IMG/VR virus record: IMGVR_UViG_2565956724_000002
Direction: 5' to 3' (one strand)
Source: a virus
Taxonomy: Duplodnaviria; Heunggongvirae; Uroviricota; Caudoviricetes
DNA length: 25,326 nucleotides
The position numbers and the translations under genes are program-made. How positions within the stretch are numbered: the first letter of the stretch is position 1; each line of letters begins with the position of its first letter. Shown here piece by piece: positions 4,052 to 23,983 of the stretch. The notes below the pieces were generated by a model that saw nothing but the letters and a program-made list of their open reading frames with translations, did not search any database and was not told the DNA's origin.

Positions 4052-4111
4052 AAATTTTGAGAGAAAAATCCCACTCCACCAGCTAAAAACTGGATTGTTT
4101 TTCATAGTTGT

Positions 4112-4138
4112 TTGACAATTGCTCTAATAAATTATAGT
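4112..4138 (+). promoter_or_regulatory. Putative coi/c1 promoter with an overlapping C1 operator (Op99a-like)
   Basis: TTGACA at 4112-4117 directly abuts ATTGCTCTAATAAATTA (4118-4134, 16 of 17 to consensus), with TATAGT at 4133-4138 as a possible -10. Confidence 0.65.
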
Positions 4139-4372
4139 TTTGCCGCCGTTTCGTAATACGACTTTGGATTCACTATTTAATGTGTCTTCAGCGTTGTAGA
4201 GCGGCTCAGAAGGAAATGAGCAAACAGGGAAACCTTATACAACGGCATTACAGCTATGCATTGCTCATCTTACACACAGCGCAATGTTGTTAGATTACCC
4301 CAGCATGGATCATGGGTGAAACAGTAGGTCAGAGCTTCAGGCTCTGTGTTGTCAATACAGTGAGACATAATT

Positions 4373-4582
4373 ATGGCTTTCATTCAACCAACCATCGACG
4401 ACGTTAGACATTGCTCTAACGCTTTATCTGTAGACCCTGCCGAAACCGACGCTGCCCGCGCCATTGCTGAACACTACTCAAAGATATCCAATCAGGAGTA
4501 CCGCATCACCCAAGACGACCTGGATGACCTCACTGACACAATCGAATATCTCATGGCAACTAACCAGTTAGACTCACAATAA
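4373..4582 (+). CDS. coi: Coi, C1 inactivator, 69 aa
   Basis: 69-aa ORF directly upstream of c1, the length and position of P1 coi. Sequence MAFIQPTIDDVRHCSNALSVDPAETD... Confidence 0.85.
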   Translation: MAFIQPTIDDVRHCSNALSVDPAETDAARAIAEHYSKISNQEYRITQDDLDDLTDTIEYLMATNQLDSQ

Positions 4583-4692
4583 ATGCACTAATAAATCTAT
4601 TATTTTTGTTTGATCCCTCTATAATATAGGTCAGTAATGACCGGTTTTCTCAGCCGGGCGTTATTGACCATGTCAATTCTGGAGGAGGATCA

Positions 4693-5544
4693 ATGATAAA
4701 TTATGTCTACGGCGAACAACTGTACCAGGAGTTCGTCAGCTTCAGGGATCTCTTTCTAAAAAAAGCTGTTGCACGCGCCCAACACGTTGATACAGCCAGC
4801 GACGGTCGTCCTGTACGCCCGGTTGTCGTTCTACCGTTCAAAGAAACTGACAGCATTCAGGCTGAAATTGATAAATGGACTTTAATGGCGCGGGAACTGG
4901 AACAGTACCCAGACCTCAATATCCCAAAGACTATTTTATATCCAGTGCCTAACATCCTTCGCGGTGTGCGTAAGGTTACAACTTATCAGACAGAAGCTGT
5001 GAACAGCGTCAACATGACCGCTGGCCGCATTATTCATCTGATTGATAAGGACATTCGCATCCAAAAAAGCGCGGGGATCAATGAGCACAGTGCGAAATAC
5101 ATAGAGAACCTGGAAGCAACAAAAGAGCTAATGAAGCAGTACCCGGAGGATGAAAAATTCCGTATGCGCGTACACGGCTTTAGCGAAACAATGCTGCGCG
5201 TCCACTACATTTCCAGTAGCCCTAACTACAATGATGGTAAATCAGTTAGTTACCATGTGCCACTGTGTGGCGTGTTTATCTGCGATGAAACTCTCCGTGA
5301 TGGAATTATCATCAACGGTGAATTCGAAAAAGCAAAATTTAGCCTTTATGACTCCATAGAACCGATCATCTGCGACCGCTGGCCGCAAGCAAAAATATAT
5401 CGCCTGGCAGATATTGAAAATGTAAAAAAACAAATTGCCATCACTCGCGAAGAGAAAAAGGTTAAGTCAGCCGCATCAGTTACGCGCAGCCGTAAAACCA
5501 AGAAGGGGCAGCCAGTAAACGACAACCCCGAAAGCGCGCAATAA
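4693..5544 (+). CDS. c1: C1 repressor of lysis, 283 aa
   Basis: MINYVYGEQLYQEFVSFRDLFLKKAVARAQ... matches P1 C1 in sequence and length. Strong RBS GGAGGAGG upstream of the ATG at 4693. Confidence 0.95.
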   Translation: MINYVYGEQLYQEFVSFRDLFLKKAVARAQHVDTASDGRPVRPVVVLPFKETDSIQAEIDKWTLMARELEQYPDLNIPKTILYPVPNILRGVRKVTTYQTEAVNSVNMTAGRIIHLIDKDIRIQKSAGINEHSAKYIENLEATKELMKQYPEDEKFRMRVHGFSETMLRVHYISSSPNYNDGKSVSYHVPLCGVFICDETLRDGIIINGEFEKAKFSLYDSIEPIICDRWPQAKIYRLADIENVKKQIAITREEKKVKSAASVTRSRKTKKGQPVNDNPESAQ

Positions 5545-7261: not shown

Positions 7262-8463
7262 AGAGCAAGTGTTTATTCATTAAGCCATGCCAGAGCTTCA
7301 TCAACCTGCGCTTCGTCTTCGACGCTAAGCACTTCGTCCTGGGGAACATAATCCGCCAGCATAGCGAAACAATATGTATCCCAATGGTCTGGTGAGTGCA
7401 GGTTGAGTTTTTTCTTCATATCCTCCTTACTCATCACCTTCCATTGACCTGCGGAGTTAATCCCTACAGGGATTTTCGACGCTTCCTCAATAGTTTCATT
7501 ACCCTTATCCAGTCTCATACGACCAGATTTTACGGCCTCTGCGGCTTGAACGTTGGCATAAGCACGTTTATCAAAGTACAGGCTCTTATCTTCACGGCTA
7601 TGCATCTTTTTACCCCAGCGTATACGCTGTACGGTAATACCATAATACTCGTACATCAGATCCGCCGTTGCTTTACCCAGGCCATCGCCGTCTATCGCTA
7701 TGGTGATATTGGGGAATCGCTCAGGATTACATTCTGCGAAAATTTTGGCGGCAAGCTGCGTTTCTGTAACGTCTGTGTATTCCAGCATTCGATAGTTGAT
7801 TACACGGCGTTTATTTCGCTGGCCGGACACCATCATGATATTGATAAAGGACTTATCCCGTCCTGTACCACCAGCAACGTCCACACATGCAAGCCAGCCC
7901 CATCCTTTGGCAATCTTGACTTTCCGCCGCGTCGCACGTTCAACCTCATCACGTCCAAGAAGGAAGCCGTCCTGTAATTTAGGGAATAGGCCGCGTACCT
8001 TAATCATGTACATAGGGTTATCACGCCCGCCGTACTCCGCCAGCTTCATTTTGATAAATTCTGACGTTACCAGCGGTGATTCCTCACTGTTAAGCGTGAT
8101 CGCCGTATAAACGCCATCTGGGTTACCAGGACGCTTGGCCAGTTTATGGTGAGTATCGTAGAAATAGCCGCTTGGGCGTGTAGGCTGTGACAGTAATAAG
8201 ATGCGGTTATCCTGTCCGGTAAGAGCACCGGTGATGATACCGAAAGCTCTATCACTGACACCGGAGGCTTCATCGATAATATACAGAAGATGATCTGCGT
8301 GTTCACCGGCGAGAACTTCTTCACTTCCCAGACGAAAGCCCTTCGGTACTACAGTCCATACACCTTTACCAGTAGACTGGCCCCCTGAATCTCCAGACAA
8401 CCAGTATCACTTATTTAAGTGATAGTCTTAATACTAGTTTTTAGACTAGTCATTGGAGAGCAG

Positions 8464-8829
8464 ATGATTGATGTCTTAGGACCGGAGAAACGCAGACGGC
8501 GTACCACACAGGAAAAGATCGCAATTGTTCAGCAGAGTTTTGAACCGGGGATGACGGTCTCCCTCGTTGCCCGGCAACATGGTGTAGCAGCCAGCCAGTT
8601 ATTTCTCTGGCGTAAGCAATACCAGGAAGGAAGTCTTACTGCTGTCGCCGCCGGAGAACAGGTTGTTCCTGCCTCTGAACTTGCTGCCGCCATGAAGCAG
8701 ATTAAAGAACTCCAGCGCCTGCTCGGCAAGAAAACGATGGAAAATGAACTCCTCAAAGAAGCCGTTGAATATGGACGGGCAAAAAAGTGGATAGCGCACG
8801 CGCCCTTATTGCCCGGGGATGGGGAGTAA
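8464..8829 (+). CDS. insC: IS2 OrfA (InsC)
   Basis: [56 protein letters not shown]... Confidence 0.93.
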
Positions 8830-9692
8830 GCTTAGTCAGCCGTTGTCTCCGGGTGTCGCGTGCGCAGTTGCACGTCATTCTCAGACGAACCGATGACTGG
8901 ATGGATGGCCGCCGCAGTCGTCACACTGATGATACGGATGTGCTTCTCCGTATACACCATGTTATCGGAGAGCTGCCCACGTATGGTTATCGTCGGGTAT
9001 GGGCGCTGCTTCGCAGACAGGCAGAACTTGATGGTATGCCTGCGATCAATGCCAAACGTGTTTACCGGATCATGCGCCAGAATGCGCTGTTGCTTGAGCG
9101 AAAACCTGCTGTACCGCCATCGAAACGGGCACATACAGGCAGAGTGGCTGTGAAAGAAAGTAATCAGCGATGGTGCTCTGACGGGTTCGAGTTCCGCTGT
9201 GATAACGGAGAAAAACTGCGAGTCACGTTCGCGCTGGACTGCTGTGACCGTGAGGCACTGCACTGGGCGGTCACTACGGGCGGCTTCAACAGTGAAACAG
9301 TACAGGACGTCATGCTGGGAGCGGTGGAACGCCGCTTCGGCAACGAGCTTCCGGCGTCTCCAGTAGAGTGGCTGACGGATAATGGTTCATGCTACCGGGC
9401 TAATGAAACACGGCAGTTTGCCCGGATGTTGGGGCTTGAACCGAAGAGCACGGCGGTGCGGAGTCCGGAGAGTAACGGCATAGCAGAGAGCTTCGTGAAA
9501 ACGATAAAGCGTGACTACATCAGTGTCATGCCCAAACCAGACGGGTTAACGGCAGCAAAGAACCTTGCAGAGGCGTTCGAGCATTATAACGAATGGCATC
9601 CGCATAGTGCACTGGGTTATCGCTCGCCACGGGAATATCTACGGCAGCAAGCCAGTAATGGGTTAAGTGATAACAGGTGTCTGGAAATATAG
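8787..9692 (+). CDS. insD: IS2 OrfB (InsD) transposase
   Basis: [34 protein letters not shown]... contains a DDE-type integrase core and overlaps insC in the usual IS3-family arrangement. Confidence 0.93.
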
Positions 9693-10092
9693 GGGCAAAT
9701 CCAACCAGTAACCTCATAGAAAGCGGTTTCTGTCAGAACAAAATAATCAGCAAGCCATGGAAAACGGCTGGTGGCAGTAGCCCAGTTTATCTTGATGTAC
9801 TTGAATATACCGGTCATTACCTGCTGAATTTTGTTCGCAACGATAATGGCGCGGGCACCGGGATACATGATTATGAACAACATGATCATGATAGAAGTCA
9901 TGTCTGATTTCCCGGTACCGTGACCAGACGAAACAGATGTCTTGCTACCCTGTTCCTGCACAGACTCAATAATCAGATCCTGCTGCCAGGTAGGTGTTTT
10001 GCCGAACAAAACATCAGCGGCCGCAATCCAGTCATAACGATATAGCGCCACCAGCTCGCGCCAACGTGGATCCGTTACGCAACTTCTGGCCA

Positions 10093-12845: not shown

Positions 12846-13463
12846 ATGAAAATGACAAGTATTCAACAACGTGCAGAGCTTCATCGTCAAATCTGGCAAA
12901 TTGCTAACGATGTCAGGGGTTCGGTCGATGGATGGGATTTTAAGCAATACGTTCTGGGCGCACTTTTCTACCGTTTTATCAGCGAAAATTTTTCCAGCTA
13001 TATTGAAGCCGGTGATGACAGCATCTGTTATGCGAAACTGGATGACAGCGTAATTACTGATGACATTAAAGACGATGCCATCAAAACTAAAGGCTACTTC
13101 ATCTACCCCAGTCAGCTTTTCTGCAACGTAGCGGCGAAAGCAAATACCAATGACAGACTGAATGCAGATTTAAACAGCATCTTCGTTGCTATCGAAAGTT
13201 CTGCTTACGGTTATCCTTCAGAAGCTGACATCAAAGGTTTGTTTGCTGATTTCGATACCACCAGTAACCGCCTGGGTAACACCGTTAAAGATAAAAATGC
13301 CCGCCTGGCTGCGGTTCTGAAAGGGGTTGAAGGGTTAAAACTTGGTGACTTCAACGAACATCAGATTGACCTGTTCGGTGATGCCTATGAGTTCCTGATT
13401 TCTAACTATGCGGCAAATGCCGGTAAGTCAGGCGGTGAGTTCTTTACACCGCAGCACGTCTCC
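12846..13463 (+). pseudogene. hsdM: Type I restriction-modification methyltransferase HsdM, N-terminal fragment only (type IC / EcoR124-like by recollection), cut off by IS1
   Basis: [44 protein letters not shown]... ending ...[16 protein letters not shown], which reaches the HsdM FxTP motif. The ORF then runs straight into the IS1 terminus at 13464. Confidence 0.7.
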
Positions 13464-13518
13464 GGTGATGTTGCCAACTTACTGATTTAGTGTATGATGG
13501 TGTTTTTGAGGTGCTCCA

Positions 13519-13794
13519 GTGGCTTCTGTTTCTATCAGCTGTCCCTCCTGTTCAGCTACTGACGGGGTGGTGCGTAACGGCAAAAGCACTGCCGGACATC
13601 AGCGCTATCTCTGCTCTCACTGCCGTAAAACATGGCAACTGCAGTTCACTTACACCGCTTCTCAACCCGGTACGCACCAGAAAATCATTGATATGGCCAT
13701 GAATGGCGTTGGATGCCGGGCAACCGCCCGCATTATGGGCGTTGGCCTCAACACGATTTTACGTCACTTAAAAAACTCAGGCCGCAGTCGGTAA
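13519..13794 (+). CDS. insA: IS1 InsA
   Basis: [43 protein letters not shown]... Confidence 0.93.
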
Positions 13795-14216
13795 CCTCGC
13801 GCATACAGCCGGGCAGTGACGTCATCGTCTGCGCGGAAATGGACGAACAGTGGGGCTATGTCGGGGCTAAATCGCGCCAGCGCTGGCTGTTTTACGCGTA
13901 TGACAGGCTCCGGAAGACGGTTGTTGCGCACGTATTCGGTGAACGCACTATGGCGACGCTGGGGCATCTTATGAGCCTGCTGTCACCCTTTGACGTGGTG
14001 ATATGGATGACGGATGGCTGGCCGCTGTATGAATCCCGCCTGAAGGGAAAGCTGCACGTAATCAGCAAGCGATATACGCAGCGAATTGAGCGGCATAACC
14101 TGAATCTGAGGCAGCACCTGGCACGGCTGGGACGGAAGTCGCTGTCGTTCTCAAAATCGGTGGAGCTGCATGACAAAGTCATCGGGCATTATCTGAACAT
14201 AAAACACTATCAATAA
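13713..14216 (+). CDS. insB: IS1 InsB reading frame (expressed as an InsAB' fusion by frameshifting)
   Basis: ...[65 protein letters not shown]... Confidence 0.9.
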
Positions 14217-15424
14217 GTTGGAGTCATTACCCGAATGATGGTTGCCCATACATCAAAGGACTGGTTAACCGGCAGAGCGATGTCAAAGGTGTCGGTCGCA
14301 AGAGTACGCCAGATCATGATGCGAAGACGCAGCATATCCTGTTCATGAGACAGGTATTCCTTCAGGGTGCGGAACTGTAGGGAACCCAGGTCCAGACCAA
14401 ATTCACGCTGTGCTTCATACGCCGCCTGTACCGTGTGCTCAGCCGCGATAACGAACTGGCTTGGGAACAGGGTGTATTTCTTCATTTCGTGGTTGATCAG
14501 CGGGATCAGCTCAGGAGCGGCTTCAATATTGATTTCCGTCTCAATTGCGATCTCAGTGCCTTTATCCGGCGCTTTGGAGAACGACAGGGAAATCTGACCA
14601 ATGTTGTAGTTCAGAGAGCAGGTAACAGTGATTTGCTCACCAGCAGCATTAGTAAACGAGTGAAGTAGGCTGCCGGAACCGTTATCAACAACAGACTTAA
14701 TACGGTTAACGTAGATGTTAGTGCGACCTTTTCGGATTGGTACATTCTGGCCTTCGAAGTCTTCCATCTTGAAGGTTGCGGTTTTGCTGGTGCCATCGGA
14801 GCTTGCCACCAGCACATAGCGGCGGCGTAACTGGCTGTACACACCGACGGATTGCATGTCCAGAACATCACCAGCAGCATAAGAACCAAAAGAGGAACCT
14901 GCCACGTTAAAGACTTCATAGATGTCGGACTGGTCACGCGTAACCGGAATGAAGGTACACGCATCAGCGGTAGCTGCCCCCAACTGAACAGGCAGGATCA
15001 TCGCGAGGAATAAAGGCAGACGCATAACACCGTCAGAAACGCTCATCATCTCTGCTGCGACGGATTCCAGCATCGCTTTATTAGTGGCATCCATGCTATT
15101 GCGGGTGGACTCAATCAGGCAGTTTTCCAGCGTCTGGTGGCAGGAGGCCAGAATTTCCGGACGCGGCATAGATTTATGTGCTGCGGCGTAGTCAGCCAGT
15201 GCACTTGCCCACGCGGTAGCAATTTGAGCGGTGGCATTATCAGAGATACCCGCAAAAATTGGGTCTTTACGTGCAGCTTCAAGGATAGATGCGGCACGCG
15301 CGGCATCATCTTTGATGAATTGGTTATCAGTACCGAACTGTGCTGTACTTGCCCAGCCAAGAACGGCTTTAGAGCGTTTTGCGATATCTGCAATACGATT
15401 CTGGTATTCGCGTAAGTTACTCAA
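14210..15424 (-). pseudogene. Capsid-like structural protein gene (P1 gene 23-like by position next to par), with its 3' end lost at the IS1 junction
   Basis: Probable TTG start at 15424 with RBS AAGGAAG. The last ~6 codons and the stop lie inside the IS1 terminus. The identity is inferred from position and composition only. Confidence 0.35.
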
Positions 15425-15483
15425 GTTACTCTTCCTTAAACACAAGGCACTTGTGTGAATCCCTTTTCGGAAGAGATTTTATT

Positions 15484-19384: not shown

Positions 19385-19424
19385 GTGAAAAACCGGCCAA
19401 CATAGCCGGTTGGAAGGAAGGGTA

Positions 19425-19817
19425 TTATTCTACGCTTTCGATAAGAAGACCATGTTCATAACATTTAAGCTCATCGCCTTCGTACAGGAATTGGTATCCA
19501 ATACCACCATTTTCATGGACATTAGGGAATAACTCATAACTCACTGAAGAGCAAATCACACCAATGCAGCGATCAACGCCTTCTCGTTCTTCAGTGCTGA
19601 AAAAATCCTCTTCGGTAAGGACATGAGTACATTGCTCATCAGCATAGGTCGGAAATACATGCTCGATGCAATCCGGGTGTTTTAAACCAAGCTGATCGGC
19701 AAGCTCGAAAGCATGACGGTATTGTTCAGATCCTGGCTTGCCAACAGTGATGTGCTCAATTTTGTAGATTGAAGTTGCTTTGTTGATAGTTTGCTTTACT
19801 GTTACTTTATCAGACAT
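19425..19817 (-). CDS. Hypothetical protein (upfA-like by position next to the origin)
   Basis: 130-aa ORF; no motif recognised. Confidence 0.45.
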   Translation of the reverse strand: MSDKVTVKQTINKATSIYKIEHITVGKPGSEQYRHAFELADQLGLKHPDCIEHVFPTYADEQCTHVLTEEDFFSTEEREGVDRCIGVICSSVSYELFPNVHENGGIGYQFLYEGDELKCYEHGLLIESVE

Positions 19818-19828
19818 AAAAATCCCTT

Positions 19829-20161
19829 TTAGTTACCTCTGATAGCGCGGTTGTAATCATTAACGTTGCGATTCTTCCTGTTAATCCCCATCAGCATCGT
19901 TTCTGTATCGAGGATATACGCTGGCAGATCATCAAAATATTCATTGCTAAACTCTGGCATCCTGCACATAAATGCACTTTTGGGGGCAGGGTGGTTAACC
20001 TTTGTCGGCGTCGGCGTTAAATTCGCTGATCGACTGCCGGAGCAACCGCTGAGTGTCAGCAGGAATGCGCTGGCGAACATTACCCGCCGCAACCAGTTGT
20101 TTCTGAACTTCAGCTTTTCGTTCCATTTGCCTGTCAGCATATTTGGCTTGTTCTGATTCAT
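19829..20161 (-). CDS. Putative lipoprotein (mlp-like)
   Basis: Signal peptide with lipobox: ...FASAFLLTLSGCSGS. Confidence 0.55.
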   Translation of the reverse strand: MNQNKPNMLTGKWNEKLKFRNNWLRRVMFASAFLLTLSGCSGSRSANLTPTPTKVNHPAPKSAFMCRMPEFSNEYFDDLPAYILDTETMLMGINRKNRNVNDYNRAIRGN

Positions 20162-20417
20162 TTTTCACTTCCTGGCTGTGAAAATGTTGCTCTGCTTTGT
20201 TCATCGTCTCAATGGTCTGGTTAAGATCCATTATTGACTTATCACGTTCCTTAACAGCCTGATCAAGACTGCCAATTTTCTCCATGGCTTGCTTTAGCTG
20301 ATGACGTTCCCATGCAAACCCAGCACCAACAAGTGCGCAAATCAGAACAAGAACACCAGTAGCAGCAAGTTTCTCCTTCAAAGACAAAGCTGTTTTTAAC
20401 GTAGAAAAGAATGACAT
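19995..20417 (-). CDS. Putative membrane-anchored or periplasmic coiled-coil protein (ppfA-like)
   Basis: N-terminal hydrophobic segment LAATGVLVLICALVGAGFAW followed by a charged, helical region. The start is taken at MSFFSTLK. It overlaps the 5' end of the lipoprotein ORF, so one of the two starts is uncertain. Confidence 0.45.
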   Translation of the reverse strand: MSFFSTLKTALSLKEKLAATGVLVLICALVGAGFAWERHQLKQAMEKIGSLDQAVKERDKSIMDLNQTIETMNKAEQHFHSQEVKNESEQAKYADRQMERKAEVQKQLVAAGNVRQRIPADTQRLLRQSISEFNADADKG

Positions 20418-21183
20418 GTCTTCCTCCTGAAGAAAAATTATCAATGAAGTCCTTTGTTACTGTGCCGCTTTGTTTAATTCATCAATAACAGAATCAGGAA
20501 CCAAAGCGGCAACTGCGCTGGCTGTGCTGACCTTATTTGCTGATGCTTCCGCAAGCGCGGTACCGATAGCATGGTTATAAGCAGTTATGGCTACGTTGGC
20601 GCTTTCATTCGCTCGTTCATACTGCTGTTGTAACGCAGTTGTGGGCGCTGTTGTCTGGTTGAAAACAACCCCAAACTGTTCAGTTGCTACTTTCAGAGAT
20701 TCAATTTGCTCTTCTGTTAGTGCTGGTGGGGGAGTGGCAGTGCCGCCGCCTGAACCAGAGCCTGACGAGCTTCCTGAGCCAGTGTTAAGGGTCTGGTTAA
20801 TCTCCCCCATAGCAGCGACTAAACTTGATGTATTAAGCGCGTTAACAGCGTCCTCAAGCGATTTAGTAATATTCACATCACCAATGGCAATAGAGATCGG
20901 CAGTTCTGAAACTTCTCGCTCATTAGCACGGCAGTAAACATCCCAACCAATATCGAGTTGAAGCAGCATTGACAGATCTGCATAACCAGCCAACAGGTCC
21001 GCGTGCTTAGTTGCCAGTTCTCCAATGTTCGTTAAGCCGGTTGTGGTTGTTCTTATCGTTGAAACATAGCTGGTAATAGTGTCGGGATAGACAATTGTAT
21101 GTAAGCGTCGTCTGAGTACCGTCTGGTCCCGAATCCAGGATCCTGTAACTTAAGCACCCACTTATTTTGCAGGTGGACACCTC

Positions 21184-21567
21184 ATGCGCGCTAAAGAAAG
21201 ACTTCCCCGGAAACACTATTCCCCTGAATTCAAAATGGAACTGGTCAGGCTGGCTCTTGAAGAAGAAGGCAGTATTGCCGCACTGGCCCGGAAACATGAC
21301 GTCAATGATAACCTGCTCTTTAAATGGATAAGGCTCTGGCAGCGTGAAGGGCGGGTCTGTCGGCCCCGAAAAAACTCATCGTCGCTTCCTGCCCTGATAC
21401 CCGTGCAGCTTCAGGCGGGCTCTTCTCTCCCAACCTTCGAACTACCATCCTGCTCTCCTCCCGCTACCTGCCACATAAAATGTCGGGGAGGAGAAATAAC
21501 ACTGACTCATCCCTCTGCTGAACTCATGAGCACTGTCCTGCGCGAACTGATGCGGGGGCCGGTATGA
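21184..21567 (+). CDS. tnpA: IS66-family accessory protein TnpA (orf1)
   Basis: First ORF of the IS66-type triplet; HTH-like N-terminus. Confidence 0.75.
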   Translation: MRAKERLPRKHYSPEFKMELVRLALEEEGSIAALARKHDVNDNLLFKWIRLWQREGRVCRPRKNSSSLPALIPVQLQAGSSLPTFELPSCSPPATCHIKCRGGEITLTHPSAELMSTVLRELMRGPV

Positions 21568-21911
21568 TAAATCTTCCCGCAGGCACAAAAATCTGGCTGG
21601 TTGCCGGTATCACCGATATGCGCAACGGCTTCAATGGCCTCGCCGCAAAGGTGCAGACCGCGCTGAAAGATGACCCGATGTCCGGCCACGTCTTCATCTT
21701 CCGGGGACGCAGCGGCAGTCAGGTAAAACTGCTCTGGTCCACCGGCGATGGTCTGTGCCTGCTGACAAAGCGACTGGAACGTGGTCGCTTCGCCTGGCCC
21801 TCAGCCCGCGATGGCAAAGTGTTCCTGACGCCGGCGCAACTGGCGATGCTGATGGAAGGTATCGACTGGCGACAGCCAAAGCGGTTACTGACATCCCTGA
21901 CCATGTTGTAG
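21564..21911 (+). CDS. tnpB: IS66-family TnpB (orf2)
   Basis: MINLPAGTKIWLVAGITDMRNGFNGLAAKVQTALKDDPMSGHVFIFRGRSGSQVKLLWS... is the typical IS66 Orf2 sequence. Overlaps tnpA by 4 nt. Confidence 0.85.
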   Translation: MINLPAGTKIWLVAGITDMRNGFNGLAAKVQTALKDDPMSGHVFIFRGRSGSQVKLLWSTGDGLCLLTKRLERGRFAWPSARDGKVFLTPAQLAMLMEGIDWRQPKRLLTSLTML

Positions 21912-21960
21912 CGCTCTTTATCCTGGTTGTCGCAGAATAAGCCTGGTAAAATACAGGCTT

Positions 21961-23496
21961 ATGAACGATACCTCTTCTGACGACATCCTTCTGCTGAAAC
22001 AGCGCCTGGCCGAACAGGAAGCGTTGATCCACGCCCTGCAGGAAAAGCTGAGCAACCGGGAACGCGAAATAGACCATCTGCAGGCGCAACTGGATAAGCT
22101 GCGCCGGATGAACTTCGGCAGTCGTTCCGAAAAGGTATCCCGCCGTATCGCGCAAATGGAAGCTGACCTGAACCTGCTGCAGCAGGAAAGCGATACGCTG
22201 ACCGGCCGGGTGGATGACCCGGCAGTGCAGCGCCCGCTGCGTCAGACCCGCACCCGCAAACCGTTCCCTGAGTCACTCCCACGGGATGAGAAGCGGCTGC
22301 TGCCGACTGAGCCGTGTTGCCCGGAGTGCGGTGGTTCGCTGAGTTACCTGGGTGAGGATGCCGCCGAACAGCTGGAGCTGATGCGCAGCGCCTTCCGGGT
22401 TATCCGGACAGTCCGTGAAAAGCATGCCTGCCGTCGGTGCGATCGCATCGTTCAGGCCCCGGCTCCTTCGCGCCCCATCGAACGGGGGATCGCCGGACCG
22501 GGGCTGCTGGCCCGAGTGCTGACCTCAAAGTATGCAGAGCACACACCGCTGTATCGCCAGTCGGAGATCTATGCCCGCCAGGGTGTAGTGTTGAGTCGTT
22601 CTGTACTGTCGGGCTGGGTGGATGCGTGTTGTCGTCTGCTGGCACCGCTGGATGAAGCCCTTCAGCACTATGTCCTGACCGACGGCAAACTCCATGCTGA
22701 CGATACGCCTGTCCCGGTGCTGTTGCCGGGCAATAAGAAGACGAAGACCGGGCGCTTATGGACGTACGTTCGAGACGACCGCAACGCCGGATCAGCGCTG
22801 GCCCCCGCAGTGTGGTTCGCTTACAGCCCGGACAGAAAAGGTATCCACCCTCAGACCCATCTTGCAGGCTTCAGTGGCGTACTGCAGGCTGATGCCTACG
22901 CCGGGTTCAACGAGCTCTACCGCGACGGCCATATAAAGGAAGCCGCGTGCTGGGCCCATGCCCGCCGAAAAATCCACGATGTTCACGTCCGTACCCCGTC
23001 AGTCCTGACGGAGGAGGCGCTGAAACGGATCGGCGAGCTGTATGCCATCGAGTCGGAGATCAGAGGTAAAAGAGCAGAGGAACGGCAGGCAGTCCGGCAC
23101 CAAAAAGTGCTGCCGCTGCTGGCGTCACTGGAGGGGTGGCTGCGGGAGAAACAGAAAACCCTCTCAAGGCACTCAGAACTGGCGAAGGCGTTCGGGTATG
23201 CGCTGAACCAGTGGCCGGCGCTGATCCGCTATGCAGAAGATGGCTGGGTGGAGGTGGATAATAACATTGCCGAAAACGCCCTACGACGGGTCAGTCTGGG
23301 GAGAAAAAACTGGCTGTTCTTCGGCTCGGATCATGGTGGTGAGCGCGGTGCGTCACTGTACAGTCTTATCGGGACGTGCAAATTAAACGGCGTGGATCCG
23401 GAACGCTATCTGCATTATGTACTTGATGTCATCGCCGACTGGCCTGTGAACCGGGTGGGTGCTCTGCTCCCGTGGCGGGTTACTCTGCCTGCCTGA
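21961..23496 (+). CDS. tnpC: IS66-family transposase TnpC (511 aa)
   Basis: N-terminal coiled coil, a CxxC...CxxC zinc motif (CCPECG...CRRCD) and a DDE region, as in IS66 transposases. Confidence 0.85.
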   Translation: MNDTSSDDILLLKQRLAEQEALIHALQEKLSNREREIDHLQAQLDKLRRMNFGSRSEKVSRRIAQMEADLNLLQQESDTLTGRVDDPAVQRPLRQTRTRKPFPESLPRDEKRLLPTEPCCPECGGSLSYLGEDAAEQLELMRSAFRVIRTVREKHACRRCDRIVQAPAPSRPIERGIAGPGLLARVLTSKYAEHTPLYRQSEIYARQGVVLSRSVLSGWVDACCRLLAPLDEALQHYVLTDGKLHADDTPVPVLLPGNKKTKTGRLWTYVRDDRNAGSALAPAVWFAYSPDRKGIHPQTHLAGFSGVLQADAYAGFNELYRDGHIKEAACWAHARRKIHDVHVRTPSVLTEEALKRIGELYAIESEIRGKRAEERQAVRHQKVLPLLASLEGWLREKQKTLSRHSELAKAFGYALNQWPALIRYAEDGWVEVDNNIAENALRRVSLGRKNWLFFGSDHGGERGASLYSLIGTCKLNGVDPERYLHYVLDVIADWPVNRVGALLPWRVTLPA

Positions 23497-23698
23497 CCAG
23501 CTTCACTTCGTCAATACGGTTCTCACTGCACGCTTACAATTGTATCCAGAATTAATCCGGTCAATTCTTCTGCAAGCAGTTTTGCTGTGTTAGCACTGTT
23601 TCGTGCCGATGTTATGGCACCAGGTGTTTTCATCCCACCGGCGGCGGCCAATTTTTTATATGCGGATAACTGGTAGTCTTTTTCCAGCATGATATCTC

Positions 23699-23983
23699 CT
23701 AACTTACCTGAACCAGGCCGTCTCCGGACGCTACGGTAGATCCGCATGAAACAGGGTCACCAACGCATACGATCCCTTTACCATTGACGGTAAACCATGC
23801 CCTGGTTGATATAGCTTGCCCACCGTGCGTACTGTTTCCATCGGTATGCTGTGCATATTGCTTACCATCAACTAACACTTCGACTCCGTTGACTTTAAGT
23901 AGTGGTTCACTCTCTACAGGAGGCCTGGATGGGAATCCTCCGTGCCCCGAAAAAATGCTGTCTTTTGTTGCAATACTTGCCAC
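23699..23983 (-). CDS. Small protein with PAAR-like motifs (upfC-like by position)
   Basis: ...KVNGVEVLVDGKQYAQHTDGNSTHGGQAIS...VNGKGIVCVGDPVSCGSTVASG resembles repeated PAAR-type motifs. It sits immediately upstream of the IS66-disrupted gene on the same strand. Confidence 0.35.
   Translation of the reverse strand: MASIATKDSIFSGHGGFPSRPPVESEPLLKVNGVEVLVDGKQYAQHTDGNSTHGGQAISTRAWFTVNGKGIVCVGDPVSCGSTVASGDGLVQVS

Follow-up and report, generated by a model that had tools for sequence, protein, structure and literature searches.

Insertion sequences (IS) of the IS66 family move by a textbook mechanism, in which a DDE transposase cuts the target at positions 8 bp apart and repair of the cut duplicates the target. 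Canonical members of the tnpA-tnpB-tnpC type, represented by IS66, IS679 and ISEc8-like elements, share the order of these three genes, an ATGA overlap, a TnpC with zinc-finger, DDE and C-terminal domains, imperfect inverted repeats of ~22 bp at the ends that begin with GTAAGCG, an 8-bp target duplication and a length of ~2.4 kb; identical copies of such elements are common across Enterobacteriaceae. Here we analyze an element of this kind in the IMG/VR virus record IMGVR_UViG_2565956724_000002, a stretch of 25,326 bp that is referred to as the window throughout, where it lies within upfB, a gene known from phage P1. We consider it very probable that an IS66-family IS has inserted into upfB of a P1-like phage-plasmid and that this insertion was a neutral step in the decay of the phage-plasmid to a plain plasmid.

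The products of upfB and its neighbor upfC have been placed at the tip of the P1 tail. In a cryo-electron microscopy (cryo-EM) study of 2026, density of medium resolution at the spike tip was assigned to UpfB, of which three trimers form a 'tripod' fitted with an AlphaFold3 model, and UpfC was built as a monomeric tip on the gp5 spike (PMC12810830). A membrane-piercing role of the UpfB tripod was offered by the same authors as a speculation (PMC12810830). In a genome-wide CRISPR interference screen both upfB and upfC scored as genes that are not essential for forming plaques, and earlier deletion data cited there agree with this (PMC10695390).

The IS66-family element and its target site

The element carries tnpA, tnpB and tnpC, all three of which are intact (Table 1). 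Their products support the assignment to the IS66 family made in an initial annotation of this DNA: TnpC and TnpB match the DDE and TnpB profiles of the family, TnpA contains a helix-turn-helix, and TnpC additionally matches the IS66 leucine-zipper, zinc-finger and C-terminal domains (PF13005, PF13007, PF13817). tnpA and tnpB overlap in the sequence ATGA, the arrangement expected for translational coupling in this family. The ends of the element are imperfect inverted repeats of 22 nt, of which 17 positions match, and both begin with GTAAGCGT (GTAAGCG...). Judged by each of its defining features that could be tested, the element is a canonical three-gene IS66-family IS, and we found no structural difference from the described members. 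In RefSeq, identical copies bear only the name 'IS66 family transposase' (WP_001000409.1), and PLSDB annotations likewise go no further than 'IS66 family'.

The perfect 8-bp duplication that the initial annotation had reported is present at both ends of the IS. The window contains exactly two copies of the octamer AATTGTAT, and each copy abuts one end of the element. The empty site is found in intact P1 (NC_005856) and in phage vB_EcoM-Ro157c2YLVW, where it reads GGGATAGAC-AATTGTAT-CCAGAATTAATCC. Since these intact relatives carry a single octamer within the same flanks, the pair is identified as a true target-site duplication rather than a repeat that arose by chance, a distinction for which the empty-site test is decisive.

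Table 1. Coordinates of the upfB insertion and neighboring features, in positions of the window
Feature	Position	Strand	Remarks
upfA	19425..19817	-	last gene of the same-strand cluster, then terminator-like hairpin 19391-19411
mlp	19829..20161	-	Rz1-like lipoprotein, o-spanin; overlaps ppfA in another frame; PHROG 30284, 7.5e-76; P1 annotation
ppfA	19995..20417	-	Rz-like i-spanin; directly downstream of upfB; PHROG 89, 1.1e-25; P1 annotation
upfB, 3' piece	20457..21092	-	native codons 52-262 and stop codon
Target-site duplication, left copy	21093..21100		AATTGTAT
IS66-family insertion sequence	21101..23537	+	2437 bp; genes antisense to upfB; boundaries confirmed against three other copies
Left terminal inverted repeat	21101..21122	+	GTAAGCGTCGTCTGAGTACCGT
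tnpA	21184..21567	+	IS66 accessory protein, 127 amino acids (aa); Pfam HTH_Tnp_1, 2.9e-13; NCBIfam IS66 TnpA NF047595, 75.7 bits (cutoff 74)
tnpB	21564..21911	+	IS66 Orf2-like accessory protein, 115 aa; Pfam TnpB_IS66 (PF05717), 1.7e-38; NF033819
tnpC	21961..23496	+	IS66 DDE transposase, 511 aa; Pfam DDE_Tnp_IS66 (PF03050), 2.5e-105; NF033517, 3.4e-140, 467 bits (cutoff 180)
Right terminal inverted repeat	23516..23537	-	GTAAGCGTGCAGTGAGAACCGT (minus-strand reading)
Target-site duplication, right copy	23538..23545		AATTGTAT
upfB, 5' piece	23546..23690	-	with the right-hand duplication copy, native codons 1-51
upfC	23699..23983	-	PAAR-type spike-tip protein, 94 aa, intact; 92/94 identical to PDB 9vyi_A 'UpfC', 4.8e-59

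Over its entire length of 2437 bp, the IS is 100% identical from end to end to copies in plasmids and chromosomes of Citrobacter, Klebsiella, Serratia, Enterobacter and E. coli. Matches with at least 99% identity are present in at least 332 plasmid records and at least 493 E. coli records, and a single E. coli genome can have up to 30 such places. Three further identical copies, located in csrD, in a sulfatase-like gene and on pCFR-4109, were inspected and possess the same end bases (GTAAGCG...CGCTTAC) together with 8-bp duplications of their own, namely CCTTAATA, CATTTATC and GAAGCACT. A left end that is 11 bases longer, as suggested by the start of some E. coli matches, was rejected, as the additional bases reflect a chance likeness of the flanks and the identity in the alignment starts at GTAAGCG. 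Since copies that are 100% identical occupy many different sites, the IS appears to be a mobile, active element, and its identity to these other copies indicates that the insertion into upfB is recent. The sites at which the four inspected copies have inserted (AATTGTAT, CCTTAATA, CATTTATC and GAAGCACT) are mostly AT-rich, which may point to a weak target preference, n=4 sites being too few to tell.

Reconstruction of upfB and the UpfB family

According to the initial annotation, removal of the IS and one copy of the duplication would restore an upfB-like reading frame. Deletion of positions 21101-23545 in silico indeed yields a minus-strand open reading frame (ORF) of 789 nt, which comprises 262 codons without an internal stop, starts at an ATG at position 23690 that is preceded by GGAG and ends with the stop codon at 20457-20459. 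The insertion point lies within codons 49-52. The N-terminal piece, predicted to span 51 codons, consists of precisely 51 native codons, and the ORF that starts there now continues into the IS for four codons (VSVQ) before it meets a stop at 23523-23525, giving a product of 55 aa. On the other side of the element, the C-terminal frame is open up to the junction and contributes 211 codons (51 + 211 = 262); the 178-aa ORF at 20457-20993 is merely the part of this frame that follows the first possible start codon. The 211 codons left 3' of the insertion lack a start codon whose context could be used, and a scan for consensus promoters revealed no convincing outward-reading promoter that could express the C-terminal piece. 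In the annotation, both upfB fragments should be joined in a single pseudogene that an IS66-family element interrupts, instead of being listed as separate hypothetical ORFs.

Alignment of the reconstructed protein supports the proposed upfB-like identity. The protein shares 98% identity with the product of the intact coding sequence (CDS) of Ro157c2YLVW, which likewise has 262 aa, and 90% identity over 262 aa with P1 UpfB (P1_gp065), and PHROG 1559, a profile of 263 positions, matches its residues 1-262 (7.1e-138). P1 upfB occupies the same place between upfC and ppfA and encodes the same Gly/Ser linker, whereas it is uninterrupted in P1 and broken after codon 51 here. A second difference concerns the start of the protein, as the P1 RefSeq record gives UpfB a length of 281 aa, with a CDS (4059-4904) that starts 19 codons further upstream and overlaps upfC. 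Since all 18 aligned full-length UpfB homologues, down to 43% identity, start with MLxxxxQL, and PHROG 1559 likewise starts with MLEKDYQL, the start that gives 262 aa is probably the real one rather than that of the RefSeq record.

UpfB belongs to a small family. A search of 5.8 billion proteins returned 48 clusters, down to 43% identity, all of them on enterobacterial contigs typical of P1-like elements. No Pfam domain or family was found for UpfB, and its sequence matches in the PDB were spurious, as they involved Gly/Ser linkers only. An AlphaFold2 monomer model, computed for a homologue of 97% identity from an alignment of 18 sequences, is confident and all-helical (predicted local distance difference test, pLDDT, 82.7; predicted template modeling score, pTM, 0.77). 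The Gly/Ser-rich linker pointed out in the initial annotation is located at residues ~155-168 of the reconstructed protein and is predicted to be disordered (158-170 in the homologue model). The structural or tail-tip role that had been suggested for the protein agrees with the published cryo-EM structure of the P1 UpfB tripod and UpfC tip (PMC12810830). This role of UpfB is thus already published, and nothing at the locus departs from what is known of IS66 elements or of P1.

The surrounding replicon and the place of the insertion in its probable decay

The plasmid-maintenance genes repA, parA, parB and phd/doc are present in the window, the gene order of P1 is kept, and the region 19400-21100 shows 95-99% nucleotide identity to P1-group phages. 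The replicon is a P1-like (Punavirus, IncY) phage-plasmid. Two more insertion sequences reside in it. An IS2 of 1331 bp (8373-9703) is flanked by a 5-bp duplication, ACCAG, inside the terminase gene pacB, and its excision in silico restores a pacB ORF of 495 aa on the minus strand. An IS1 of 768 bp (13464-14231; surrounding span 12846-15445) has no target duplication and connects a 5' fragment (the first ~215 residues) from a type I hsdM gene to gene 23, which has the major capsid protein as its product and is truncated by the IS1 such that residues 1-398 of 568 are left. This arrangement bears the mark of a deletion or inversion mediated by IS1, and the capsid gene is thus broken. Both lesions, which affect essential phage genes of the surrounding plasmid, were missed in the initial annotation.

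A functional P1-like phage-plasmid is characterized by intact essential genes for virion and packaging functions; here gene 23 is truncated and pacB is split. Since IS2 splits pacB and IS1 truncates gene 23, formation of virions is unlikely and the replicon is most likely defective. The locus resembles other cases of IS-mediated decay of P1-like phage-plasmids, in that IS2, IS1 and the IS66-family element have hit phage genes and repA, parAB and phd/doc remain. Together, the lesions in upfB, pacB and gene 23 flag the replicon as a P1-like plasmid that is probably defective, and such flags are useful for sorting phage-plasmids into inducible phages and decayed plasmids.

Judged by what is established for DDE transposases and the IS66 family, the insertion would have proceeded as follows. 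With the help of TnpA and TnpB, TnpC would have cut the target with a stagger of 8 bp, and repair of the gaps would then have left AATTGTAT on both sides of the IS. UpfB is thereby cut after 51 native residues, leading to the 55-aa product, and the loss of the tail-tip tripod on the UpfC PAAR spike tip would have been tolerated. The upfB insertion would represent one neutral step as insertion sequences turn the phage-plasmid into a plain plasmid, a reading that we favor because the element appears to be defective also through the lesions in pacB and gene 23. Some points qualify this reading. The insertion itself is contradicted by no evidence, but its neutrality is something that we infer. Moreover, a window of 25 kb can neither tell in which order the three insertion sequences arrived nor show whether the missing part of gene 23 and the tail genes are preserved in other parts of the replicon. 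The P1 record additionally places the predicted promoters P1ppfA and P2ppfA inside the 3' part of upfB, downstream of the insertion; because of this position, the insertion may have only a small effect on ppfA and mlp, the spanin genes.

It is conceivable, if very unlikely, that the insertion was adaptive, either because loss of the UpfB tripod was selected or because the IS exerts a polar or antisense effect on the upfC/spanin cluster, with changed adsorption or host range, or less lysis, as possible benefits. The dispensability of upfB and upfC for plaque formation makes such a loss viable (PMC10695390), and the IS is oriented antisense to both genes. Among 614 P1-like PLSDB plasmids with upfB, ~55 do not have the gene as one contiguous piece either, yet the other 559 keep it whole. 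Among the plasmids of PLSDB and the complete genomes of E. coli, no record covers at least 80% of a 401-bp probe for the junction described here, and there is thus no sign that the insertion has recurred or spread in the records searched. Moreover, the lesions of pacB and gene 23 in the same window make selection on virion properties moot.

We regard as even less probable that the junctions are an assembly artefact, in which a repeat-collapsed copy of the IS was misplaced into a P1-like contig. An element that is multi-copy in many genomes, with the up to 30 places per E. coli genome mentioned above, is a usual cause of misassembly. However, a wrong join would neither produce a perfect direct duplication of 8 bp from a target that intact relatives carry only once, nor keep both halves of upfB exactly in register. 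A neutral insertion during decay of the phage-plasmid is hence the explanation that we retain. Insertion of an IS66-family element into upfB is an ordinary and well-understood event, and the P1-like phage-plasmid hit here has been damaged by other insertion sequences as well. The case described here adds nothing on IS66 transposition or P1 tail biology, and its value lies mainly in annotation.

UpfC and the genes downstream of upfB

The ORF upstream of upfB, in which the initial annotation had recognized a PAAR motif, is P1 upfC (Table 1), and its annotation should read UpfC (PAAR spike tip). Its product is separated from P1 UpfC (9vyi_A) by two substitutions, C11F and A86S. It is further significantly similar to gp5.4 of phage T4 (E=1.2e-7; about 1e-7 for 5iv5 and 4ku0), the PAAR-repeat spike tip of that phage, and to the Vibrio PAAR protein 4jiv (3.7e-4). 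PHROG 281 'PAAR motif' matches UpfC at 3.9e-29, whereas its score of 26.9 bits for the Pfam profile PAAR_motif (PF05488) is 0.1 bit below the gathering cutoff of 27.0, and NF033420 gives 36 bits versus a cutoff of 124. The likeness of UpfC to T4 ORF5.4 is already noted in the P1 RefSeq record, and a preprint on the T4 spike tip describes gp5.4 and UpfC as the only pair of tail proteins of T4 and P1 that match in BLAST (PMC12407873). At UpfC residue 11, the aligned residue of T4-like gp5.4 is not Cys.

The genes around upfB follow each other as in P1, in the order repA-upfA-mlp-ppfA-upfB-upfC, and are followed by uhr and hrdC, which lie on the opposite strand.
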